A stretch of DNA of 19,638 bases from a virus (Duplodnaviria > Heunggongvirae > Uroviricota > Caudoviricetes). Each line of letters opens with the position of its first letter. Within the stretch, counting starts at the first letter, position 1. A program made the position numbers and the translations under genes. Shown here piece by piece: positions 90 through 18,336 of this stretch. The stretch covers positions 1 to 19,638 of the IMG/VR virus record IMGVR_UViG_2695420718_000005; one strand, 5' to 3'. The notes beneath the pieces were generated by a model. The model was given only the letters and a program-made list of their open reading frames with translations. It searched no databases and was not told where the DNA came from.

Positions 90-311
90 ATGAAAAAAAT
101 GGCAATTGTCGATAAAAAGGGTCTGGAGTACATTCCTAATATCGATCGTATGATCCGTGAGAAAGAATGTCGGGAGCTAACCACTCTTGCGAACAGCACA
201 CGCTGGAAGCTGGAGAAGGAAGGAAAATTTCCTAAGCGGATCAAGATTGGTTCCACTGCTGTTGCATATCGTCTTTCAGAAGTGCAGGCATGGATTAGGG
301 GAGAGTGGTAA
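90..311 (+). CDS. alpA: AlpA-family (prophage CP4-57-type) HTH transcriptional regulator
   Basis: 73-aa ORF; the stretch RELTTLANSTRWKLEKEGKFPKRIKIGSTAVAYRLSEVQAWI fits the AlpA/Phage_AlpA HTH pattern with a conserved Trp near the C-terminus; AAGG about 10 nt upstream of the ATG. An integrase would be expected upstream, outside the window. Confidence 0.8.
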   Translation: MKKMAIVDKKGLEYIPNIDRMIREKECRELTTLANSTRWKLEKEGKFPKRIKIGSTAVAYRLSEVQAWIRGEW

Positions 312-330
312 GAATTTAGACAGTGGATGT

Positions 331-357
331 AATCCTATGGGGTAAACCCATAGGATT
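331..357. terminator. Perfect 11-bp inverted repeat (aatcctatggg / cccataggatt, 5-nt loop) between convergent genes; possible bidirectional terminator
   Basis: Read directly: lies between the alpA stop (311) and the stop of the minus-strand 449-aa gene (363). No clear U-tract on either side, so intrinsic termination is uncertain. Confidence 0.35.
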
Positions 358-362
358 TGAAA

Positions 363-1712
363 TCACTTAAATTCAAATACGTGCGTAGTTGATGAGATTA
401 TATAATTAGGTGGTAAGTATTGAACTATTTCTCCATCTTCTTCAAAAATATGAATAACTCTTGGGAATAATTCAGGGTGTATAGGATTTAATGCCTTCGG
501 ATTATGAAACATGTATATTGCTGTACACCATGGTTCTTGATATGAAGGTGCATTGACAAGAGCAGTAAAAGGCATTGGGGTACAGCCTTCATCAGTTTTA
601 ATACCTCTAACGATGGATTTGACATTTTTTTGTTCAATCCCTGCCACTACTCCCATCCTATCAAATTTTGGGATGGTGGCATGTGTCGCAAGTAATATGG
701 CTGAGACATTCTCATTTTTATTAGAGCCGAAAAAATTAGATTGTATACTTCGATTTTCAAATAAATGTTGTTCAATTTTACTTCCAGAATCCATATCTAC
801 ACCATACAGATAGCTTTGTAGTGCTGGCATTGATATACTCATCGAAAATCTGCGTGAGTAATCGTGTAAAGCAATAATGAAAGGCTTTCCTTTTGTATGA
901 TCTAGTTCCCAATAGCATAATTTTAAGGGTTCAGGTTTATGCCTAACTTTCTTTAATAGAGTGCGGGCAAATTTGAATGGCATTTGTTCTTTTACATATC
1001 TCTGAAGATCTTCTACTGCCTCATGATCAAGTATCAATTTCTCGGTAGGTTCCTCTTGTTCTGCAACTGTGGCAGCTTCTACAGCAATATCAATGCCATT
1101 TTTTGAGATAATATAATCAGGTTGAGCATAATCTCTGCATATTACGAAATCCATTTCGTAGAAAACTGCGTTTAGATAAAGTTCGAATAAGCGAGAGTTA
1201 AATGAAGCACTCTGGAAATCTCTGATGAATATTCCATCAGGATCTTTACACCAATAAGCTAACTCTTGCATAACAATAAATGCAGGATAGTGTTTGGGTT
1301 CCTCAAGTAGCATTCTTAGATAAACGTTTTTTTTATGTTCTGGAACTTTGGCTAGGAATATTGAAAATGCCGACTCTGATTCGTCACCCTGTATAAAACA
1401 ACCGTTCTTGTGTAGTGATAATAGCTCTGGTATGGCTTTTTCCATATCAGTAATTAAATCATCTTTAGATTCACGGGATACAATTACTTTAATCGCTCTA
1501 AATTTTTTATCTAAATCCCTACCTAGAAATATAGCGTTGTAATCATTATCTATTTTACAAAAAACAATTGTTGCTAAGATCGTGACATCATCCTTTATAA
1601 ATTTGAACCAACAGATTTCCTCCGAAAAGGTTTTTACGTATGGTGTACGACCATAGAAAAATACATCAAATTGTTCTTTACTGATTTCTAGCATTTTGTG
1701 ACTTGTTGTCAT
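363..1712 (-). CDS. Hypothetical 449-aa protein, visibly AT-rich cargo gene; no family recognised
   Basis: Long uninterrupted minus-strand ORF, much more AT-rich than the flanking phage genes; 23 bp downstream of and co-oriented with the RHH gene. No Walker A or other motif I can name confidently; a weak PD-(D/E)xK-like pattern (FVICRD...PDYIIS...IDIAVEAAT) is only suggestive. Confidence 0.7.
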   Translation of the reverse strand: MTTSHKMLEISKEQFDVFFYGRTPYVKTFSEEICWFKFIKDDVTILATIVFCKIDNDYNAIFLGRDLDKKFRAIKVIVSRESKDDLITDMEKAIPELLSLHKNGCFIQGDESESAFSIFLAKVPEHKKNVYLRMLLEEPKHYPAFIVMQELAYWCKDPDGIFIRDFQSASFNSRLFELYLNAVFYEMDFVICRDYAQPDYIISKNGIDIAVEAATVAEQEEPTEKLILDHEAVEDLQRYVKEQMPFKFARTLLKKVRHKPEPLKLCYWELDHTKGKPFIIALHDYSRRFSMSISMPALQSYLYGVDMDSGSKIEQHLFENRSIQSNFFGSNKNENVSAILLATHATIPKFDRMGVVAGIEQKNVKSIVRGIKTDEGCTPMPFTALVNAPSYQEPWCTAIYMFHNPKALNPIHPELFPRVIHIFEEDGEIVQYLPPNYIISSTTHVFEFK

Positions 1713-1735
1713 AGAAGAATCCTTTATGCAAATTA

Positions 1736-1930
1736 TCAGCCTTTAGGTGTTATTCCTTGTTTTATTAGTTCGGCACGAGCCAGTTCTTTTAGCCAGTTAC
1801 CTAAGCTCATCCCTTCTTTGGCAGCGACATTAACCATTTGTTCTTTTAATTCTGGGTTAATACGGACTTGGAATGCTGGTGCTTTACCTGCACCTTTCGG
1901 TTGTTTATCACGTTGAATGATAGTTGACAT
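1736..1930 (-). CDS. Arc/MetJ-type ribbon-helix-helix DNA-binding protein (64 aa)
   Basis: PAFQVRINPELKEQMVNVAAKEGMSLGNWLKELARAEL resembles the Arc-repressor layout (N-terminal beta-strand then two helices); first gene of a two-gene minus-strand operon. Confidence 0.55.
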   Translation of the reverse strand: MSTIIQRDKQPKGAGKAPAFQVRINPELKEQMVNVAAKEGMSLGNWLKELARAELIKQGITPKG

Positions 1931-1952
1931 GTGTGTACCTATTGCTTAGTAT
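1924..1952 (+). promoter_or_regulatory. Candidate sigma70 promoter (TTGACA, 17-nt spacer, TAGTAT) reading rightward into the small-gene/primase operon
   Basis: ttgaca at 1924-1929, 17-nt spacer, tagtat at 1947-1952; overlaps the inverted repeat at 1931-1972. Confidence 0.4.
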
Positions 1953-1972
1953 GATTCTTGATAGGTACACAC
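1931..1972. promoter_or_regulatory. Perfect 12-bp inverted repeat (gtgtgtacctat ... ataggtacacac, 18-bp spacer); candidate operator
   Basis: Read directly; sits immediately 5' of the RHH gene start codon (minus strand) and overlaps the candidate rightward promoter, i.e. in the divergent control region. Confidence 0.45.
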
Positions 1973-2069
1973 CTTATCATGTTTTATTGCTATATAACAA
2001 CGCCCTGCAGTGCTCGCAACACATACAGGGCGTCTAACCACCAACGATAGCAACAGTATCGAGGTAGCT

Positions 2070-2273
2070 ATGAGAAATCATACCACACACCCGCAAGGGC
2101 GGGATTCGCACAACCTGAATAAATACATCTGGCGTTTTATCGCCCTGAGCACCGCACAACCACGCGTAATACACATCGAGGCCGCCAGCGAACAGGAAGC
2201 CCGCCAGCAATCCCCAACTGGCTACGTGATGATATTCGCCGCCCGTATTCGTCAGGAGGTGTGCCGTGCTTAA
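2070..2273 (+). CDS. Hypothetical small protein (67 aa from the internal ATG)
   Basis: ATG at 2070 preceded by GAGG; the longer ORF from 2010 lacks an RBS. Same strand and operon as the downstream coupled genes. Confidence 0.35.
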   Translation: MRNHTTHPQGRDSHNLNKYIWRFIALSTAQPRVIHIEAASEQEARQQSPTGYVMIFAARIRQEVCRA

Positions 2274-2642: not shown

Positions 2643-2864
2643 ATGAATACAGAACGGGAAGTCTTTTTTAAATTGTTAGCATGTGCAGAAAGTTCATTAA
2701 CTTTAAATAATTCAGCAAAAGCAATATTAAATATGTGGCTTGATTGCATAAATGACAATGAAGATGCAAATATTGCTTATGGCCTGTTGTCACTTATTGA
2801 TGAATCAGCAGAAAAACTCAATGACGCAATAAATAGTGCCCTGCTATCAAATAAGTCGAGTTAA
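2643..2864 (+). CDS. Hypothetical small protein (73 aa), AT-rich
   Basis: ORF in the same coupled series. Confidence 0.4.
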   Translation: MNTEREVFFKLLACAESSLTLNNSAKAILNMWLDCINDNEDANIAYGLLSLIDESAEKLNDAINSALLSNKSS

Positions 2865-5922: not shown

Positions 5923-5940
5923 ATATTGCCAATAAAAAAA

Positions 5941-5964
5941 GCCGGAAAAAATAAATTTTCCGGC
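5941..5964. other. Palindrome gccggaaaa-aataaa-ttttccggc between ssb and the capsid-like gene
   Basis: Perfect 9-bp arms read directly; could be a terminator-like structure or a protein-binding site. Confidence 0.3.
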
Positions 5965-6138
5965 ATGCTACATAAATCCCGACCAAAGGGAGTGAAGATA
6001 TTAACACTAATTGTCCGCACTGAAGTTGTCACCCCAAAACTTTATACAACATTGCACTCGGTTGCATGTGTTCGCATGACAAATATCGGTGATAGCATAT
6101 ATCCACAATTATTTTTAATGAATGCAAAGAGGATGCGT

Positions 6139-7179
6139 ATGGTTGATTTATATTCGCCTACCCAGCTTGTACAGGTGGTTAATGCTGTAGATGTACAAAA
6201 ACAACTAAATGCGTTGTTTACCAGTTTGTTTTTTACTCGCTCGGTAATGTTTGGATCGCGCGATATTATTCTTGATACAATCGACGATCCAAATATCCCA
6301 ATTGCAGCGTTTTGTTCTCCTATGGTGGGTAGTAAAGTTTCACGTGACGAAGGGTACGAATCAAAAACAATTCGTCCAGGCTATATGAAGCCGAAAAGCA
6401 GCATTGATCCAAATAAGTTAGCTGTGCGCCCTGCTGGTGTATCACCTGAGCAATACAATGCTTTTGGGGCGCGTAATATTAAAGTTAAACAGGCGATTGT
6501 AAATCAAGCTAAAGCTATTCGTGCACGTATTGAATGGCTTGCCGTTCAGGCAATCACAACGGGGAAAAATATCATTGAGGGCGATGGTATTGAACGTTAT
6601 GAGCTGGACTGGAATATTAAACCACAAAATATCATCACTCAGTCTGGCGGTACTGAGTGGTCAGGTAAGGATAAAGAAACTTTTGATCCAAATGATGATA
6701 TTGAGAGCTACGCAGAATTTAGTGAGGGCGTCACTAATATCATCATTATGGGCGGTAATGTATGGAAGAAATACCGTTCATTCAGAGCGATAAAAGAGGC
6801 TCTGGATACCCGTCGTGGTTCTAATTCCGAACTGGAAACGGCCCTTAAAGACCTTGGTGATTCGGTGAGTTTTAAAGGATATATGGGCGATGTTGCGATT
6901 GTTGTTTACAGCGGGCGTTATACCGACGAGGACGGAACTGAAAAACATTTCCTTGATCCTGATTTGATGGTGCTTGGCAATACGGCTCTTCAGGGGATTG
7001 TCGCCTATGGCGGTATTCAGGATCCGGAGCTAATCCGAATGGGGCTGACTAAAGCCGAACTTGCACCGAAAAACTATATTGTGCCTGGTGATCCGGCTAT
7101 TGAATATGTGCAGACACATTCAGCACCACAGCCAATACCGGCCCGCATCAATCGTTTTGTTACCGTTCGCATTGGCTAA
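6139..7179 (+). CDS. Major capsid protein, diverged homologue of lambda gpE (347 aa from the RBS-preceded ATG)
   Basis: Segments PGYMKPK, ITQSGGTEWSGKDKETFDPNDDIESYA and LDTRRGSNSELETALKDLGDSVSFKGYMGDVAIVVYSG align with remembered lambda E; AAAGAGGA RBS before the ATG at 6139. The longer ORF from 5926 has no homology in its extension. Confidence 0.8.
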   Translation: MVDLYSPTQLVQVVNAVDVQKQLNALFTSLFFTRSVMFGSRDIILDTIDDPNIPIAAFCSPMVGSKVSRDEGYESKTIRPGYMKPKSSIDPNKLAVRPAGVSPEQYNAFGARNIKVKQAIVNQAKAIRARIEWLAVQAITTGKNIIEGDGIERYELDWNIKPQNIITQSGGTEWSGKDKETFDPNDDIESYAEFSEGVTNIIIMGGNVWKKYRSFRAIKEALDTRRGSNSELETALKDLGDSVSFKGYMGDVAIVVYSGRYTDEDGTEKHFLDPDLMVLGNTALQGIVAYGGIQDPELIRMGLTKAELAPKNYIVPGDPAIEYVQTHSAPQPIPARINRFVTVRIG

Positions 7180-7188
7180 GGGGGAGCA

Positions 7189-7530
7189 ATGGCTACTCAT
7201 TACACTGAACTCATGGCTGGCACTGAAGCACTGGTGACTACGCTGGGGATATTTTCAGCTAATAAAGGGGTAATTCCTGCATTTACGCCACTGATGCAGG
7301 AAGATGCAACAGGTGCACTGGTGGTATGGGATGGTTCGAGCGTAGGTAAAGCGGTTTATGTTTCCGCTGTACAAATCGACACCGCGAAAAAAACACAGGC
7401 TCAGGTCTATAAGACAGGTGTCTTAAATGTTGATGCTCTGAACTGGCCTGAGTCTGTAAAAGAACTGTCAGTAAAGATTGCAGCGTTTGTTGGCTCAGGT
7501 ATTTCTGTTCAGCCGCTGGCTCGTGTGTAA
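7189..7530 (+). CDS. Head decoration protein, lambda gpD-like (113 aa)
   Basis: PAFTPLMQEDATGALVVWDG, YKTGVLNVDALNWPE and AAFVGSGISV align with remembered lambda D (TPLMLDTSSRKLVAWDG, YKSGTFRYEDVLWPE, TAFAGTAISI); GGGGGAG RBS. Confidence 0.75.
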   Translation: MATHYTELMAGTEALVTTLGIFSANKGVIPAFTPLMQEDATGALVVWDGSSVGKAVYVSAVQIDTAKKTQAQVYKTGVLNVDALNWPESVKELSVKIAAFVGSGISVQPLARV

Positions 7531-7541
7531 AGGGGGATACA

Positions 7542-7925
7542 ATGCAAAATGATTACAATGACCTTAAGCCAATTGCCGAAATGATGTACCCGAATCCAGC
7601 TGTAGAGGAATTAAAAGCTATCGCTGACAAAATGTGTTTAAGCGAGCGCCTTGTTGATATGAATCAGGTGATGGAAATTACAACCCTGAGTCGGCGTACA
7701 CTGCTAAACCTTGAGGCTAGTGGAGAGTTCCCGGAGCGTGTGCAGGTTACGGAAGGGCGTAAGGCCTGGTATTTAAGTGAAGTGATCGACTGGATAAATA
7801 ATATTCCTCGCGCTTCTGAATATTGCCGCGTACCTGTCCCAAAAAAGCCAGATGCGGCGCTATGCCTCAAGATTGAGCGTGTACGCCGCAATGCACGGGA
7901 TGGTCGCTATAAGCTGATTGGTTGA
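7542..7925 (+). CDS. AlpA-like HTH DNA-binding protein with N-terminal extension (127 aa)
   Basis: MEITTLSRRTLLNLEASGEFPERVQV...WYLSEVIDWI fits the AlpA-type HTH pattern; AGGGGGA RBS; located immediately upstream of the cos site. Confidence 0.6.
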   Translation: MQNDYNDLKPIAEMMYPNPAVEELKAIADKMCLSERLVDMNQVMEITTLSRRTLLNLEASGEFPERVQVTEGRKAWYLSEVIDWINNIPRASEYCRVPVPKKPDAALCLKIERVRRNARDGRYKLIG

Positions 7926-7933
7926 TGAAATTA

Positions 7934-7962
7934 GGGCCCGCTCTGGCTGGCGGGTCCTTTCC
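7934..7962 (+). terminator. Candidate intrinsic terminator (gggcccgc-tctggctg-gcgggtcc followed by tttcc)
   Basis: GC-rich imperfect hairpin followed by a short T-run, just after the 127-aa gene stop. Confidence 0.4.
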
Positions 7963-7981
7963 GGCGATCTGACAGGCTACG

Positions 7982-7993
7982 GGGCGTCAGGCG
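7982..7993. other. cosN-equivalent (gggcgtcaggcg), divergent from lambda cosN GGGCGGCGACCT
   Basis: Position and flanks (acg before, cgcgg-attttcgc after) correspond to the lambda cohesive-end region as I recall it; 5 of 12 positions differ. Confidence 0.55.
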
Positions 7994-7998
7994 CGCGG

Positions 7999-8170
7999 AT
8001 TTTCGCTATTTATGAAAATTTTCCGGTTTAAGGCGTTTCCGTTCTTCTTCGTCGTAACTTAATGTTTTTATTTAAAATACCCCCTGAAAAGAAAGGAAAC
8101 GACAGGTGCTGAAAGCGAGCTTTTTGGCCTCTGTCGTTTCCTTTCTCTGTTTTTGTCCGTGGAATGAACA
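7999..8170 (+). promoter_or_regulatory. Lambda-type cosB with Nu1-binding repeats R3, R2, R1 (CGTTTCC / GGAAACG)
   Basis: attttcgctatttatgaaaattttccggtttaaggcgtttccgttcttcttcg ... aaaggaaacgacaggtg ... ctgtcgtttcctttctc matches my recollection of the lambda left end nearly base for base; three CGTTTCC-type repeats read directly. Confidence 0.75.
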
Positions 8171-8722
8171 ATGGAAGTCAACAAAAAGCAGCTGGCTGAC
8201 ATTTTCGGTGCGAGTATCCGTACCATTCAGAACTGGCAGGAACAGGGAATGCCCGTTCTGCGAGGCGGTGGCAAGGGTAATGAGGTGCTTTATGACTCTG
8301 CCGCCGTTATAAGATGGTATGCCGAAAGGGATGCTGAAATTGAGAACGAAAAGCTGCGCCGGGAAGTTGAAGAACTGCGGCAGGCCAGCGAGACAGATCT
8401 CCAGCCAGGGACTATTGAGTACGAACGCCATCGACTTACGCGTGCGCAGGCCGACGCACAGGAACTGAAGAATGCCAGCGAAACAGGTGAGGTAATTGAC
8501 ACTGCATTTGCGACTTATGCCTTGTCGAAATTAACTGGGGAAGTTGGAGCAATCATTGATAGTCTTCCACTTGCGATCTGTCGACAGTTTCCTGGCATGG
8601 AAAAACGGTATCAGGACTTCATTAAGATGGAGGTCAGTAAAGCATTTATTCGAGCTTACCAGATCTCAGATAACATTCCAGATATGGCTGAAAGGTATAT
8701 CAAGGATAATCAGCGAAGTTAA
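8171..8722 (+). CDS. Nu1: Terminase small subunit Nu1 (183 aa); N-terminal DNA-binding half lambda-like, C-terminal half diverged
   Basis: MEVNKKQLADIFGASIRTIQNWQEQGMPVLRGGGKGNEVLYDSAAV... is essentially lambda Nu1; the C-terminal ~70 aa are homologous but diverged. No gpA gene follows. Confidence 0.9.
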   Translation: MEVNKKQLADIFGASIRTIQNWQEQGMPVLRGGGKGNEVLYDSAAVIRWYAERDAEIENEKLRREVEELRQASETDLQPGTIEYERHRLTRAQADAQELKNASETGEVIDTAFATYALSKLTGEVGAIIDSLPLAICRQFPGMEKRYQDFIKMEVSKAFIRAYQISDNIPDMAERYIKDNQRS

Positions 8723-8828: not shown

Positions 8829-9734
8829 TTAAGGTAGTGGTACTATGGATATTTTTCTGTCGTTCCCAAATGAACTTTTAAATAATTTCGCTCTTGGATA
8901 CATTTTAACTAGTGATGCGACTTCATCGAACTCGCTGGCATCAAAAAGAGGACCAAGTATTACAGATTTTAACTCAAAAGGGTGAAATTTTAAGTCGCTA
9001 TATTGACCAGTGCTATTTGGCCTAGCGTAGGTTGAAATTCTCCACTCTCTTTCATATGCCCATTCTTCTGTTTTTATGAATATTATCTCATTATTGATAT
9101 ATTCAATTGACTTATTGTCTGGCATGAAAAGCAACTCGGCCATCCCTTCAGCAGTGTGAGTTAGAGGCATTTCATCTGTGTATTTCATAGGTTTGGCTAT
9201 TAACCAAGCGCTATCCAGAAAGTCTACACAATCAAATTCGATAACTATACCTTTATATTTATCGGCATAGTGATTCCACATAGGAGTGATTATAGGGCTC
9301 TCAGATAAACACAAAATCCTTCTGTTATTAAGCATTCCTCGCCAGACATCTTTCATTTCTTGTATTGCCGCAGGAGCGCCAATCCCAACTGGTGGAATGT
9401 TTACCATTTCTTGAAATCTTTCAATTAATCCTGCGGGTATGCCTAAAGGAAATGACTTTTGGAAATCACTTAGCATTGTTCTAATTCTAGGGTTTAAATT
9501 TTGTATGTCTTCTCTGGGGGTAATCAACTCCGCTATTAACTTGCGGGCTAAAGCTTTGCCAATATTAATTTCGTTAATACCAGGCATAACTTCTCTTGGA
9601 ACATCAAAAGGGTCATTAAATAGGACCGGAGAACTCCATCTAAGGCTGCATGAATCAAGAACAATCTTCGCGGTATTCAACGACATATACTTATAAAATG
9701 TTGAGCGTTCATGCATTCTGTTGGGTGAGCGCAT
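8829..9734 (-). CDS. Hypothetical 301-aa protein, AT-rich moron; motif pattern reminiscent of the DUF2971 family (unverified recollection)
   Basis: Long minus-strand ORF, strongly AT-rich relative to the flanking lambda genes; motifs FYKYMSL, FNDPFD, RILCLSESPIITPMWNHYADKYKGIVIEFD. It occupies the position where lambda A through Nu3, D and E-5' would be. Confidence 0.7.
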   Translation of the reverse strand: MRSPNRMHERSTFYKYMSLNTAKIVLDSCSLRWSSPVLFNDPFDVPREVMPGINEINIGKALARKLIAELITPREDIQNLNPRIRTMLSDFQKSFPLGIPAGLIERFQEMVNIPPVGIGAPAAIQEMKDVWRGMLNNRRILCLSESPIITPMWNHYADKYKGIVIEFDCVDFLDSAWLIAKPMKYTDEMPLTHTAEGMAELLFMPDNKSIEYINNEIIFIKTEEWAYEREWRISTYARPNSTGQYSDLKFHPFELKSVILGPLFDASEFDEVASLVKMYPRAKLFKSSFGNDRKISIVPLP

Positions 9735-9870: not shown

Positions 9871-10659
9871 CCGAAGCATGAGGTGAATCCGCAGATGACC
9901 CTGCGTCGCCTGCCGGATGAAGATCCGCAGAATCTGGCGGACCCGGCTTACCGCCGCCGTCGCATCATCATGCAGAACATGCGAGACGAAGAGCTGGCCA
10001 TTGCTCAGGTCGAAGAGATGCAGGCAGTTTCTGCTGTGCTTAAGGGCAAATACACCATGACCGGTGAAGCCTTCGATCCGGTTGAGGTGGATATGGGCCG
10101 CAGTGCGGCGAACAACATCACACAGTCCGGTGGTACGGAGTGGAGCAAGCGTGACAAGTCCACGTATGACCCGACCGACGATATCGAAGCCTATGCGCTG
10201 AACGCCAGCGGAGTGGTGAATATCATCGTGTTTGATCCGAAAGGCTGGGCGCTGTTCCGTTCCTTCAAAGCCGTCAAGGAGAAGCTGGATACCCGTCGCG
10301 GCTCTAATTCCGAGCTGGAGACAGCGGTAAAAGACCTGGGCGAAGCGGTGTCCTATAAGGGGATGTATGGCGATACGGCGATCGTCGTGTATTCCGGACA
10401 GTACGTGGAAAACGACGTCAAAAAGAACTTCCTTCCGGACAACACGATGGTGCTGGGGAACTCTCAGGCACGCGGTCTGCGCACCTATGGCTGCATTCAG
10501 GATGCGGACGCACAGCGCGAAGGTATTAACGCCTCTGCCCGCTACCCGAAAAACTGGGTGACCACCGGCGATCCGGCGCGTGAGTTCACCATGATTCAGT
10601 CAGCACCGCTGATGCTGCTGGCTGACCCTGATGCGTTCGTGTCCGTACAACTGGCGTAA
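9871..10659 (+). pseudogene. E: 5'-truncated major capsid gene E (lambda gpE residues ~90 to end)
   Basis: Translation PKHEVNPQMTLRRLPDEDPQNLADPAYRRRRIIMQNMRDEEL... matches lambda E almost residue for residue; homology stops abruptly near 9866-9870, where an in-frame TAG (9868-9870) is present; no proper N-terminus or RBS. Confidence 0.8.
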
Positions 10660-13629: not shown

Positions 13630-14045
13630 GTTTTGCCCTGAAACTGGCGCGTGAGATGGGGCGACCCGACTGGCGTGCCATGCTTGCCGGGATGTCATCC
13701 ACGGAGTATGCCGACTGGCACCGCTTTTACAGTACCCATTATTTTCATGATGTTCTGCTGGATATGCACTTTTCCGGGCTGACGTACACCGTGCTCAGCC
13801 TGTTTTTCAGCGATCCGGATATGCATCCGCTGGATTTCAGTCTGCTGAACCGGCGCGAGGCTGACGAAGAGCCTGAAGATGATGTGCTGATGCAGAAAGC
13901 GGCAGGGCTTGCCGGAGGTGTCCGCTTTGGCCCGGACGGGAATGAAGTTATCCCCGCTTCCCCGGATGTGGCGGACATGACGGAGGATGACGTAATGCTG
14001 ATGACAGTATCAGAAGGGATCGCAGGAGGAGTCCGGTATGGCTGA
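13207..14045 (+). CDS. G-T: G-T tail assembly chaperone fusion produced by -1 frameshift (T portion 13611..14045)
   Basis: The -1 frame ORF after the slippery site encodes ...FDGELSFALKLAREMGRPDWRAMLAGMSSTEYADWHRFY..., matching the lambda T region; no independent RBS or start. Confidence 0.8.
13605..13611 (+). promoter_or_regulatory. Programmed -1 ribosomal frameshift slippery heptamer G GGA AAG (G to G-T)
   Basis: GGGAAAG read in the G frame near the 3' end of G; the -1 frame continues as the T ORF to 14045. Confidence 0.8.
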
Positions 14046-17000
14046 ACCTGTAGGCGATCTGGTCGTTGATTTGAGTCTGGATGCGGCCAGATTTGACGAG
14101 CAGATGGCCAGAGTCAGGCGTCATTTTTCCGGTACGGAAAGTGATGCGAAAAGAACAGCGGCAGTCGTTGAACAGTCGCTGAGCCGACAGGCGCTGGCTG
14201 CACAGAAAGCGGGGATTTCCGTCGGGCAGTATAAAGCCGCCATGCGTATGCTGCCTGCACAGTTCACCGACGTGGCCACGCAGCTTGCAGGCGGGCAAAG
14301 TCCGTGGCTGATCCTGCTGCAACAGGGGGGGCAGGTGAAGGACTCCTTCGGCGGGATGATCCCCATGTTCAGGGGGCTTGCCGGTGCGATCACCCTGCCG
14401 ATGGTGGGGGCCACCTCGCTGGCGGTGGCGACCGGTGCGCTGGCGTATGCCTGGTATCAGGGCAACTCAACCCTGTCCGATTTCAACAAAACGCTGGTCC
14501 TTTCCGGTCATCAGTCGGGTCTGACGGCAGATCGTATGCTGGTCCTGTCCAGAGCCGGGCAGGCGGCAGGGCTGACGTTTAACCAGACCAGCGAGTCACT
14601 CAGCGCACTGGTTAAGGCGGGGGTAAGCGGTGAGGCTCAGATTGCGTCCATCAGCCAGAGTGTGGCGCGTTTCTCCTCTGCATCCGGCGTGGAGGTGGAC
14701 AAGGTCGCTGAAGCCTTCGGGAAGCTGACCACAGACCCGACGTCGGGGCTGACGGCGATGGCACGCCAGTTCCATAACGTGACGGCGGAGCAGATTGCGT
14801 ATGTTGCTCAGTTGCAGCGTTCCGGCGATGAAGCCGGGGCATTGCAGGCGGCGAACGAGGCCGCAACGAAAGGGTTTGATGACCAGACCCGCCGCCTGAA
14901 AGAGAACATGGGCACGCTGGAGACCTGGGCAGACAGGACTGCGCGGGCATTCAAATCCATGTGGGATGCGGTGCTGGATATTGGTCGTCCTGATACCGCG
15001 CAGGAGATGCTGATTAAGGCAGAGGCTGCGTTTAAGAAAGCAGACGACATCTGGAATCTGCGCAAGGATGATTATTTTGTTAACGATGAAGCGCGGGCGC
15101 GTTACTGGGATGATCGTGAAAAGGCCCGTCTTGCGCTTGAAGCCGCCCGAAAGAAGGCTGAGCAGCAGACTCAACAGGACAAAAATGCGCAGCAGCAGAG
15201 CGATACCGAAGCGTCACGGCTGAAATATACCGAAGAGGCGCAGAAGGCTTACGAACGGCTGCAGACACCGCTGGAGAAATATACCGCCCGTCAGGAAGAA
15301 CTGAACAAGGCACTGAAAGACGGGAAAATCCTGCAGGCAGATTACAACACGCTGATGGCGGCGGCGAAAAAGGATTATGAAGCGACGCTGAAAAAGCCGA
15401 AACAGTCCGGCGTGAAAGTGTCTGCGGGCGATCGTCAGGAAGACAGTGCTCATGCTGCCCTGCTGACGCTTCAGGCAGAACTCCGGACGCTGGAGAAGCA
15501 TGCCGGAGCAAATGAGAAAATCAGCCAGCAGCGCCGGGATTTGTGGAAGGCGGAGAGTCAGTTCGCGGTACTGGAGGAGGCGGCGCAACGTCGCCAGCTG
15601 TCTGCACAGGAGAAATCCCTGCTGGCGCATAAAGATGAGACGCTGGAGTACAAACGCCAGCTGGCTGCACTTGGCGACAAGGTTACGTATCAGGAGCGCC
15701 TGAACGCGCTGGCGCAGCAGGCGGATAAATTCGCACAGCAGCAACGGGCAAAACGGGCCGCCATTGATGCGAAAAGCCGGGGGCTGACTGACCGGCAGGC
15801 AGAACGGGAAGCCACGGAACAGCGCCTGAAGGAACAGTATGGCGATAATCCGCTGGCGCTGAATAACATCATGTCAGAGCAGAAAAAGACCTGGGCGGCT
15901 GAAGACCAGCTTCGCGGGAACTGGATGGCAGGCCTGAAGTCCGGCTGGAGTGAGTGGGAAGAGAGCGCCACGGACAGTATGTCGCAGGTAAAAAGTGCAG
16001 CCACGCAGACCTTTGATGGTATTGCACAGAATATGGCGGCGATGCTGACCGGCAGTGAGCAGAACTGGCGCAGCTTCACCCGTTCCGTGCTGTCCATGAT
16101 GACAGAAATTCTGCTTAAGCAGGCAATGGTGGGGATTGTCGGGAGTATCGGCAGCGCCATTGGCGGGGCTGTTGGTGGCGGCGCATCCGCGTCAGGCGGT
16201 ACAGCCATTCAGGCCGCTGCGGCGAAATTCCATTTTGCAACCGGAGGATTTACGGGAACCGGCGGCAAATATGAGCCAGCGGGGATTGTTCACCGTGGTG
16301 AGTTTGTCTTCACGAAGGAGGCAACCAGCCGGATTGGCGTGGGGAATCTTTACCGGCTGATGCGCGGCTATGCCACCGGCGGTTATGTCGGTACACCGGG
16401 CAGCATGGCAGACAGCCGGTCGCAGGCGTCCGGGACGTTTGAGCAGAATAACCATGTGGTGATTAACAAAGGACTGATGGCGATGGCGCGCCAGTTCCGT
16501 AACGTGACGGCAGAGCAGATTGCGTATGTTGCACAGCTGCAGCGTTCCGGAGACGAGGCCGGGGCATTGCAGGCGGCGAACGATATCGCCACGAAAGGCT
16601 TTGATGAGCAGACCCGTCGCCTGAAAGAAAACATGGGAACACTGGAGACCTGGGCGGATAAAACAGGGAAGGCATTCAAATCGATGTGGGATGCCATTCT
16701 GGATATCGGTCGTCCTGAATCCTCAGCGGATATGCTCGCCAGTGCGCAGAAGGCATTTGATGAGGCGGATAAAAAATGGCAGTGGTACCAGAGCCGGAGC
16801 CAGCGCCGGGGAAAGACCTCCTCTTTTCGTGCGAACCTTCAGGGGGCATGGGATGACAGGGAAAATGCCCGTCTGGGTCTGGCAGCGGCCACGCTGCAGT
16901 CGGATATGGAAAAAGCCGGTGAACTGGCGGCAAGGGACCGGGCTGAGCGTGAGGCGTCACAGCTGAAGTATACCGGAGAGGCGCAGAAGGCGTATGAGCG

Positions 17001-18336
17001 CCTGCAGACGCCGCTGGATAAATATACCGCCCGTCAGAAAGAGCTGAATAAGGCCCTGAAAGACGGAAAAATCCTGCAGGCGGATTACAACACGCTGATG
17101 GCGTCGGCAAAAAAGGATTATGAATCGACGCTGAAAAAGCCGTCCGGTGTGAAGGTGTCTGCCGGTGAGCGCCAGGAAGACCGGGCGCATGCAGCCATGC
17201 TGGCGCTTGAAACCGAGCTCAGGACGCTGGAAAAACACAGCGGTGTGAATGAGAAAATCAGCCAGCAGCGCCGGGATTTATGGGAAGCGGAAAATCAGTA
17301 TGTGGTCCTGAAAGAGGCCGCCACGAAACGGCAGTTATCTGAGCAGGAAAAATCCCTGCTGGCTCATGAGAAAGAGACGCTGGAGTACAAACGCCAGCTG
17401 GCTGAGCTGGGAGACAAGATTGAACACCAGAAGCGGCTGAATGAGCTGGCACAGCAGGCGGCGCGGTTTGAACAGCAGCAGAGCGCGAAGCAGGCGGCAA
17501 TCAGCGCAAAAGCCCGCGGCCTCACTGACCGTCAGGCGCAGCGGGAGTCGGAAGAGCAGCGCCTTCGTGAGGTGTACGGTGATAATCCGGCTGCGCTGGC
17601 GAAGGCCACATCTGCACTGAAGAACACCTGGTCTGCGGAGGAGCAGCTTCGTGGAAGCTGGATGGCCGGGATGAAGTCCGGCTGGGGCGAGTGGGCGGAA
17701 AGTGCGACGGACAGTTTTTCGCAGGTTAAAAACGCGGCCACGCAGACCTTTGACGGTATTGCACAGAATATGGCAGCGATGCTGACCGGCAGCGAACAGA
17801 ACTGGCGGGGATTCACCCGTTCGGTGCTCTCCATGCTGACAGAAATTCTGCTTAAGCAGGCAATGGTGGGGATTGTCGGGAGTATCGGCAGCGCCATTGG
17901 CGGGGCTGTTGGTGGCGGCGCATCCGCGTCAGGCGGTACAGCCATTCAGGCCGCTACGGCGAAATTCCATTTTGCAACCGGAGGATTTACGGGAACCGGC
18001 GGCAAATATGAGCCAGCGGGAATTGTTCACCGCGGTGAATTCGTCTTCACGAAGGAGGCAACCAGCCGGATTGGCGTGGGGAATCTCTACCGGCTGATGC
18101 GCGGCTATGCCACCGGCGGTTATGTCGGTACACCGGGCAGCATGGCGGACAGCCGGTCGCAGGCGTCCGGGACGTTTGAGCAGAATAACCATGTGGTGAT
18201 TAACAACGACGGCACGAACGGTCAGATAGGGCCACAGGCACTGAAGGCTGTTTATGACGTAGCCCGTAAGGCGGCAATGGATGTTGTGACCGGGCAGATG
18301 CGCGATGGTGGTCTGTTCTCCGGAGGTGGACGATGA
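14038..18336 (+). CDS. H: Tail tape measure protein H with internal in-frame tandem duplication (1432 aa)
   Basis: N-terminus MAEPVGDLVVDLSLDAARFDEQMARVRRHF... and first ~810 aa match lambda H; a second, diverged copy of the ~575-aa core follows in frame, ending with the H C-terminus ...MRDGGLFSGGGR. Confidence 0.9.
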   Translation: MAEPVGDLVVDLSLDAARFDEQMARVRRHFSGTESDAKRTAAVVEQSLSRQALAAQKAGISVGQYKAAMRMLPAQFTDVATQLAGGQSPWLILLQQGGQVKDSFGGMIPMFRGLAGAITLPMVGATSLAVATGALAYAWYQGNSTLSDFNKTLVLSGHQSGLTADRMLVLSRAGQAAGLTFNQTSESLSALVKAGVSGEAQIASISQSVARFSSASGVEVDKVAEAFGKLTTDPTSGLTAMARQFHNVTAEQIAYVAQLQRSGDEAGALQAANEAATKGFDDQTRRLKENMGTLETWADRTARAFKSMWDAVLDIGRPDTAQEMLIKAEAAFKKADDIWNLRKDDYFVNDEARARYWDDREKARLALEAARKKAEQQTQQDKNAQQQSDTEASRLKYTEEAQKAYERLQTPLEKYTARQEELNKALKDGKILQADYNTLMAAAKKDYEATLKKPKQSGVKVSAGDRQEDSAHAALLTLQAELRTLEKHAGANEKISQQRRDLWKAESQFAVLEEAAQRRQLSAQEKSLLAHKDETLEYKRQLAALGDKVTYQERLNALAQQADKFAQQQRAKRAAIDAKSRGLTDRQAEREATEQRLKEQYGDNPLALNNIMSEQKKTWAAEDQLRGNWMAGLKSGWSEWEESATDSMSQVKSAATQTFDGIAQNMAAMLTGSEQNWRSFTRSVLSMMTEILLKQAMVGIVGSIGSAIGGAVGGGASASGGTAIQAAAAKFHFATGGFTGTGGKYEPAGIVHRGEFVFTKEATSRIGVGNLYRLMRGYATGGYVGTPGSMADSRSQASGTFEQNNHVVINKGLMAMARQFRNVTAEQIAYVAQLQRSGDEAGALQAANDIATKGFDEQTRRLKENMGTLETWADKTGKAFKSMWDAILDIGRPESSADMLASAQKAFDEADKKWQWYQSRSQRRGKTSSFRANLQGAWDDRENARLGLAAATLQSDMEKAGELAARDRAEREASQLKYTGEAQKAYERLQTPLDKYTARQKELNKALKDGKILQADYNTLMASAKKDYESTLKKPSGVKVSAGERQEDRAHAAMLALETELRTLEKHSGVNEKISQQRRDLWEAENQYVVLKEAATKRQLSEQEKSLLAHEKETLEYKRQLAELGDKIEHQKRLNELAQQAARFEQQQSAKQAAISAKARGLTDRQAQRESEEQRLREVYGDNPAALAKATSALKNTWSAEEQLRGSWMAGMKSGWGEWAESATDSFSQVKNAATQTFDGIAQNMAAMLTGSEQNWRGFTRSVLSMLTEILLKQAMVGIVGSIGSAIGGAVGGGASASGGTAIQAATAKFHFATGGFTGTGGKYEPAGIVHRGEFVFTKEATSRIGVGNLYRLMRGYATGGYVGTPGSMADSRSQASGTFEQNNHVVINNDGTNGQIGPQALKAVYDVARKAAMDVVTGQMRDGGLFSGGGR
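14747..16471 (+). repeat. Tandem duplication copy 1 inside H (lambda-like allele)
   Basis: Begins ...LTAMARQFHNVTAEQIAYVAQLQRSGDEAGALQAANEAATKGFDD... and ends ...GTFEQNNHVVIN; offset to the copy-2 equivalent positions is 1725 bp (575 codons). Confidence 0.85.
16472..18196 (+). repeat. Tandem duplication copy 2 inside H (diverged allele)
   Basis: Begins ...LMAMARQFRNVTAEQIAYVAQLQRSGDEAGALQAANDIATKGFDE...; contains identical stretches of over 100 nt with copy 1 (e.g. acagaaattctgcttaagcaggcaatggtggggattgtcggg...) interspersed with diverged segments. Confidence 0.85.

Follow-up and report, generated by a model that had tools for sequence, protein, structure and literature searches.

What does an AT-rich pair of genes between alpA and the primase gene of a satellite-like element encode, and is it a new defence against phages? 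This question is raised by a stretch of 19,638 nt from the virus record IMGVR_UViG_2695420718_000005 (here referred to as the window; coordinates are positions in it, with the strand given for each feature), in which an open reading frame (ORF) of 449 amino acids (aa) and an ORF of 64 aa for a ribbon-helix-helix (RHH) protein lie side by side. A sequence-only reading had proposed them as a two-gene cargo operon and a candidate uncharacterised anti-phage or exclusion system. Our analysis gives another answer, to which we assign a probability of roughly 80%: the 449-aa gene is the defence gene PD-T7-1, most likely coding for a nuclease, and it is a passenger in the variable zone after the integrase and alpA genes of a helper-embedded phage-inducible chromosomal island (PICI), with an Arc-like RHH backbone regulator upstream. 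PD-T7-1, the helper-embedded type of PICI and the defence hotspots of satellites have all been published before.

The identity of the 449-aa protein was obtained from profile searches. The PADLOC profile of PD-T7-1 (PDLC04073) matched it with an E-value of 1e-153 and 510 bits, residues 7–447 corresponding to positions 1–448 of the 452 in the profile, and phrog_8571 matched with an E-value of 6.8e-90. The PADLOC profile of PD-T7-5 (PDLC04110) also matched, over residues 118–424 only (E-value 6.6e-39, 132 bits). Searches of Pfam and NCBIfam gave no match for the protein, and the earlier statement that no motif of a known family could be assigned to it holds for these two databases but fails for PADLOC and PHROGs. 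Moreover, the ORF is a real gene, since it has 177 homologue clusters at E<=1e-5 and 28 columns are invariant across an alignment of 60 PD-T7-1 homologues.

PD-T7-1 was found by functional selection in E. coli by Vassallo, Doering, Littlehale, Teodoro and Laub (2022, Nat Microbiol; PMC9519451). The gene, from strain ECOR46 (RCQ85672.1), was catalogued as one coding sequence (CDS) of 1350 nt and was cloned with its native upstream region in the promoterless low-copy vector pCV1; the clone left adsorption unaffected and protected against T7, and against T-even phages more strongly (PMC9519451). In a second study, PD-T7-1 from strain NILS69 protected against a Teseptimavirus, and T7 plaques were smaller. 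The primers PD-T7-1-R and PD-T7-1-F (Table S8 of PMC9519451) match the window exactly at 318–342 (+) and 1997–2014 (-), and their offsets from the ends of the ORF, 45 and 302 bp, are those of Table S2 of the same paper. Judged by these matches and offsets, the stretch 318–2014 is probably the locus of the ECOR46 type clone. The suspicion of an anti-phage gene was thus right. With the profile match and the published primers, the system is not an uncharacterised one, and the cloning and phage challenge suggested for it has already been published, because these primers bound 318–2014.

By the primer positions, the published "single-gene" clone also held the whole RHH gene and the inverted repeat that is its putative operator. 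This point, and the placing of the locus in the cargo slot of a helper-embedded PICI, are what we add to the published description of a single CDS. Another PD-T7-1 allele, common in E. coli (201 of 5426 genomes), has 60% aa identity to the window protein and scores 522 bits on the PD-T7-1 profile. In these genomes, for example E. coli FWSEC0008 (L002, 7781–9432), a Qin/Rac-like prophage carries it, with a DUF977 gene on one side and hokD on the other. An alpA remnant of 24 codons, an RHH remnant of 34 codons and the leader hairpin flank it, and the RHH operator is deleted. Because alpA and RHH remnants flank it, the common allele represents a satellite fragment captured by a prophage. It was considered as the published PD-T7-1 and ruled out by the primers, which point to the window-type allele with a complete RHH gene. 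An argument for the dispensability of RHH that had been drawn from the common allele was withdrawn, since the published clone carries a complete RHH gene. That the PD-T7-1 gene alone would be sufficient is indirectly suggested by the intact ORFs behind truncated RHH genes in the 201 genomes and by homologues that have no RHH gene beside them.

The arrangement of the pair is as it had been described. Both genes are AT-rich and co-oriented, with a spacer of 23 bp (1713–1735) that carries an AAGGA Shine-Dalgarno sequence. The GC content is 0.344 for PD-T7-1 and 0.410 for RHH, with GC at third codon positions (GC3) of 0.256 and 0.262, respectively, compared with GC3 of 0.548 for the primase, 0.695 for the prophage capsid fragment and a GC content of 0.51 for the whole window. 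The pair is convergent with alpA and divergent from the replication operon, whose genes are an Icd-like ORF, small ORFs, DUF4222 and a D5-type primase.

A lambdoid prophage hosts the element, a helper-embedded PICI that sits within the prophage's major capsid gene in the same orientation; such satellites in prophage late genes were described in 2023, including a dynamic zone between their integration and replication zones (PMC10111431). In collinear E. coli loci, the prophage genes to the left of the satellite are nohA, those for terminase, portal, protease and decoration protein, and the major capsid gene with its 5' part. The satellite itself has integrase, alpA, variable slot, RHH, Icd-like ORF, DUF4222, primase and single-stranded DNA-binding protein (SSB) in this order; its right part consists of capsid E and decoration D genes of its own, another AlpA-like gene, in some cases Nu1, and another variable slot. 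The prophage then resumes with the 3' part of its capsid gene, and tail genes follow. The window has the same zones: alpA; the RHH/PD-T7-1 slot; DUF4222, D5 primase and SSB; capsid E, decoration D, second AlpA-like gene and Nu1. The capsid gene of the prophage continues at 9883–10659 with its 3' part (Phage_cap_E positions 94–328), FI and tail genes lie behind it, and the 5' capsid half and int, located upstream in the collinear loci, fall outside the window.

The slot between alpA and RHH is variable, with other cargo or none in near-identical backbones. Among 5426 complete E. coli genomes, 890 have a flank in common with the window, and only two of these carry PD-T7-1 cargo of the window type. 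At least 80% of the window is present at ~97% identity in 47 genomes, and the one examined (L023) has DUF2971 and a SWIM protein in the slot; the slot of other siblings contains an Abi-like gene or hypothetical genes. alpA is 98–100% identical among sibling elements bearing different cargo. The proposed slot of a satellite-like element and its variability are therefore both borne out. Defence hotspots are known from P2 and P4 (Rousset 2022, PMC9122126), and 5' and 3' immune regions from PICIs (cited in PMC11364771).

The 64-aa protein is most likely the satellite's own Arc-like regulator. A profile of 11 members of its family matched P22 Arc with an E-value of 2.1e-4 (positions 12–59 to Arc 2–49 of 53) and Mnt with 0.068; phrog_228, an Arc-like repressor, matched the protein itself (E-value 1.2e-5), and its Pfam HicB and Arc scores are just under the cut-offs. 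The match to Arc ends at residue 59, and the sole extension is a basic N-terminal arm of 17 aa. The gene is kept at 64–100% identity in sibling elements with other cargo, and it was found without cargo as well as with at least five different ones; behind it is an Abi-like gene, a SWIM protein gene, hypothetical genes, tiny ORFs or, directly, alpA. It is also present in PICIs with other integrases and replicases, and there only tiny ORFs, a 158-aa ORF or alpA come behind it. Because it is retained with unrelated cargo and without cargo, RHH is a backbone gene of the satellite, and the two genes are not one cargo unit. The sequence-only reading had also offered an alternative, with the RHH protein as the element's own repressor and the 449-aa gene as co-transcribed cargo, and this is the version that the comparative evidence favours.

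A putative operator was found next to the RHH gene (Table 1). It is a perfect inverted repeat with 12-bp arms, of which there were 0 occurrences in 200 shuffles, and its arms are conserved in 10 of the 12 related loci examined, with a drifting spacer. Three arm variants pair with three variants of the RHH beta-strand, and both arms change symmetrically each time: AFQ(V/I)R is found with the arm GTGTGTACCTAT, PFHMR with GTGTACACCTAT and MFNVR with GTATAGACCTA. In another sibling, the RHH at this position is divergent and has a different palindrome, three copies of GTGTTCAACAC, and a more distant homologue in Serratia has a 16-bp palindrome in the same region instead. The varying RHH residues 19 and 21 align with Q9 and N11 of Arc, and the invariant R23 with R13; these three Arc residues contact the bases in the Arc–operator structure. 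From these comparisons we infer that RHH binds the repeat and represses the rightward operon. The argument from co-variation is weakened by the fact that gene and repeat are linked to each other.

Table 1. Positions of the features at the PD-T7-1 locus of the window.
Feature	Position	Strand	Description
alpA (73 aa)	90..311	plus	Pfam Phage_AlpA, E-value 2.7e-15; left edge of the cargo slot
Stretch between PD-T7-1 cloning primers	318..2014		Strain ECOR46, vector pCV1
Perfect stem, 11 bp, loop of 5 nt	331..357		Between convergent alpA and PD-T7-1; repeat search; arms AATCCTATGGG / CCCATAGGATT; without T-run
PD-T7-1 (449-aa ORF)	363..1712	minus	Defence gene, intact reading frame
C-terminal beta-rich domain of PD-T7-1 (residues 300-449)	366..815	minus	Without solved structural relative
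Putative PD-(D/E)xK nuclease core of PD-T7-1 (residues 171-284)	861..1202	minus	Invariant E177, P198-D199, E212, K255
N-terminal alpha+beta domain of PD-T7-1 (residues 8-100)	1413..1691	minus	From model secondary structure; absent in PD-T7-5; invariant E32, D55, D66
RHH (64-aa ORF)	1736..1930	minus	Arc-like ribbon-helix-helix; backbone gene of enterobacterial PICIs
Sigma-70-like rightward promoter TTGACA-17-TAGTAT	1924..1952	plus	Promoter scan, 10/12 matches; -35 overlaps RHH start codon, -10 between repeat arms
Perfect 12-bp inverted repeat, 18-nt spacer	1931..1972 (arms 1931-1942, 1961-1972)		Repeat search; putative RHH operator, 1 nt upstream of RHH start codon
Conserved hairpin, 8-bp arms	2000..2033		Leader of rightward Icd-like/primase operon; partly within the published clone
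Icd-like small ORF	2070..2273	plus	First gene of divergent replication operon; annotated 'host cell division inhibitor Icd-like protein' in collinear RefSeq locus; Pfam search without match

The TTGACAT of the rightward promoter is conserved in all 11 of the related loci that carry the Arc-like RHH. A promoter scan for a leftward promoter found no consensus site in 1713–2014; nevertheless such a promoter must lie in this stretch, upstream of or inside the RHH gene, because the clone worked in a promoterless vector. RHH and PD-T7-1 are likely co-transcribed, since the 23-bp spacer is too short for a promoter or a terminator. At the other end of the pair, the stem between PD-T7-1 and alpA is probably a bidirectional terminator. 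We propose that RHH most likely acts on the repeat at 1931–1972, and that, bound there, it would keep the rightward promoter of the Icd-like/primase operon repressed and probably also control the leftward transcript of its own gene. PD-T7-1, which has its own ribosome-binding site, most likely rides on the RHH transcript and would be expressed during satellite quiescence. The leader of the rightward operon contains the conserved hairpin of Table 1, for which RNAalifold on 11 sequences of related elements gave 13 pairs, five of them with compensatory changes; no Rfam family matched it, and ~100 bp around it are 90–98% conserved in hundreds of E. coli genomes.

A wider proposal can be put forward only tentatively, and we think it somewhat improbable as a whole: the Arc-like RHH might be a maintenance repressor, as yet undescribed, that is common to a large group of PICIs and helper-embedded PICIs in enterobacteria, with at least three specificity classes and matching operators, silencing the replication operon and driving the defence cargo behind it. 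A literature search for an RHH repressor in PICIs returned nothing relevant. If the proposal is true, RHH control was in place when the published PD-T7-1 phenotype was measured, and the defence depends on RHH in its level or inducibility.

Two other explanations of the RHH gene and its repeat have to be weighed together with this. RHH and PD-T7-1 could form a true two-component system, in which RHH is an antitoxin-like neutraliser or obligatory regulator of a toxic nuclease and the cataloguing of PD-T7-1 as a single gene is wrong. The content of the validated clone, which held the whole RHH gene and the repeat, fits this idea, as does the RefSeq name of the RHH protein, 'toxin-antitoxin system HicB family antitoxin', and in E. 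coli, Buttiauxella and Serratia an RHH gene or its remnant precedes PD-T7-1 at a distance of 21–23 bp. However, the same RHH gene has unrelated cargo or none behind it in other PICIs, the 449-aa ORF is intact behind the 34-codon RHH stump in 201 E. coli genomes, and no RHH gene lies beside the homologues of Pseudomonas, Burkholderia, Halomonas and a metagenome contig. RHH antitoxins such as RelB, ParD and CcdA wrap their toxin by a C-terminal extension; the 64-aa protein has no such extension, and its HicB score is under the Pfam cut-off. A type II toxin-antitoxin pair was also considered as such and rejected, RHH having neither a consistent partner toxin gene nor a toxin-binding extension. 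Since RHH occurs with other cargo or none and PD-T7-1 homologues occur without RHH, we regard such a two-component system as highly improbable. Very doubtful, too, is the idea that the repeat at 1931–1972 is an RNA hairpin in the RHH/PD-T7-1 leader that controls translation or stability, with the target of RHH elsewhere. The compensatory change of both arms would be expected of it, and the 3' arm, which runs up to the RHH start codon, covers the probable ribosome-binding site. Yet the arm variants follow precisely the RHH positions that are aligned with Arc's base-contacting residues, the -10 hexamer of the conserved rightward promoter lies between the arms, and the divergent RHH at the same position has other palindromes. 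RHH as the satellite's own repressor, with PD-T7-1 as cargo behind it, is the explanation that we keep.

How PD-T7-1 acts was approached by modelling. An AlphaFold2 model from 60 homologues reached a predicted local distance difference test (pLDDT) of 93.7 and a predicted template modelling score (pTM) of 0.92, and it hints at a PD-(D/E)xK nuclease core: E177, P198-D199 and E212 are invariant and are placed on the expected helix and strands of such a core in alignment and model. PD-T7-1 would thus most likely be a nuclease on phage nucleic acid, working via a divergent PD-(D/E)xK core of E177, D199, E212 and perhaps K255; sensing or gating may be the task of the N-terminal domain and of the C-terminal domain, a structural orphan. 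In the papers found to mention PD-T7-1, no biochemistry of the protein was seen. A protein that is not a catalytic nuclease seems unlikely to us; in that case the core would be a degenerate module for binding or sensing nucleic acid, and protection would come from another activity, for example that of the C-terminal domain or of a host partner. The canonical Lys is indeed missing, as position 214 is Ala or Val and the motif reads E212-A-A. The fold matches are weak, with nothing at E<=1e-3 in a Foldseek search of the full model against the PDB and no match of the 60-homologue profile to PDB sequences, and the C-terminal domain has many invariant polar residues (R352, E393, H403-N404). On the other side, E177, D199 and E212 are invariant in homologues down to 31% identity, and the invariant K255 and R174 are candidate replacements for the Lys. 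In fact, active members without the canonical Lys exist in this superfamily, such as BamHI and BglII. The nuclease thus remains our preferred reading, and the C-terminal domain, confidently modelled and without a solved structural relative, could guide mechanistic work.

PD-T7-1 was also found in other places. The window-type allele is disrupted in both complete E. coli genomes that carry it, SCU-316 (L001, 12297–13645) and NZ_CP116925.1; there are two frameshifts in one of these copies, and the annotation of the other is split, with a 316-aa product. This could be real decay or homopolymer errors of long-read assemblies in an AT-rich gene. In Pseudomonas fluorescens HK44 (L012, 3748–6410), a homologue with 53% identity has an overlap of 4 nt with the end of the gene for a 418-aa reverse transcriptase (RT), whose best PADLOC matches are the generic RT profile and RT_UG17; this locus may be an RT-associated variant of the PD-T7-1 family. 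Homologues are also present in temperate phages of Yersinia, Morganella and Escherichia (~60% identity) and Klebsiella (30%), the records being MT374857.1, KY653118.1, LR597641.1 and the Klebsiella phages OK4903xx/OK4904xx.

Several other features of the window were observed. In the rightward operon, a 73-aa ORF at 2643–2864 (+) has a GC content of 0.320 and a GC3 of 0.230, AT-rich like the cargo and unlike its neighbours, and is possibly a small gene that was inserted. The genes for capsid E, decoration D and a Nu1-like small terminase that belong to the satellite are located at 5926–8722. A second AT-rich cargo gene (8829–9734, minus strand, GC 0.377) occupies the second variable slot, which immediately precedes the satellite's right end; it encodes a 301-aa DUF2971 protein matched by the PADLOC candidate family PDC-S31 (E-value 2.5e-32) and by phrog_1762, and siblings have a restriction endonuclease, HEPN and DUF262, or an Abi-family gene in this slot. 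In the prophage part, the tape measure ORF (14038–18336, plus strand) has 1432 aa, compared with a length of 853 aa for near-identical relatives. Within it there are two Tape_meas_lam_C matches and an internal duplication that has diverged, with a period of ~1737 nt and copies 71–90% identical; the duplication could be real, predicting a longer tail, or an assembly or recombination chimera.

The main value of these results is that a false lead is removed, as the "uncharacterised" candidate is PD-T7-1 and has already been tested against a phage panel. Moreover, the reference clone of PD-T7-1 carried an unannotated Arc-like regulator and its putative operator, which bears on single-gene sufficiency and on native regulation. 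Conserved in many E. coli PICIs together with a co-varying putative operator, RHH is also a concrete candidate for the silencing of their replication operon.

Compared with known systems, the gene itself is no different from the PD-T7-1 type system, with the same family, the same length of 449 aa, a full-length profile match and a weak Hjc-like nuclease motif at residues 177–219. PD-T7-5, from the same study, has the nuclease core and most of the C-terminal region in common with the window protein but lacks the N-terminal domain of ~110 aa. The element shares with the published helper-embedded PICIs the site in the prophage major capsid gene and the zone order of integration, dynamic, replication and late; their dynamic zone contains Bro-network proteins and immunity RNAs, whereas here it contains an Arc-like RHH and a defence gene (PMC10111431). 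Rfam searches of the whole window at gathering thresholds, and of 1900–2500 at E<=5, gave nothing credible and no C4 or isrK immunity RNA. The counterpart of the PICI 3' immune region is the slot with the DUF2971 gene. Arc and Mnt of the P22 immI region are likewise small RHH proteins with a palindromic operator overlapping divergent promoters; unlike theirs, the host element here is a satellite and not a phage, and the arms of the putative operator are 12 bp with centres ~30 bp apart, whereas the Arc operator is a compact 21 bp. As in lambda cI-rexAB and in the P2/P4 and PICI hotspots, a swappable defence passenger is found beside a maintenance regulator and is probably co-transcribed with it. 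In lambda, rexAB rides on the cI transcript as we propose for PD-T7-1 on that of RHH, although co-transcription is suggested here by the 23-bp spacing only, and the cargo is a single putative nuclease unrelated to RexAB.

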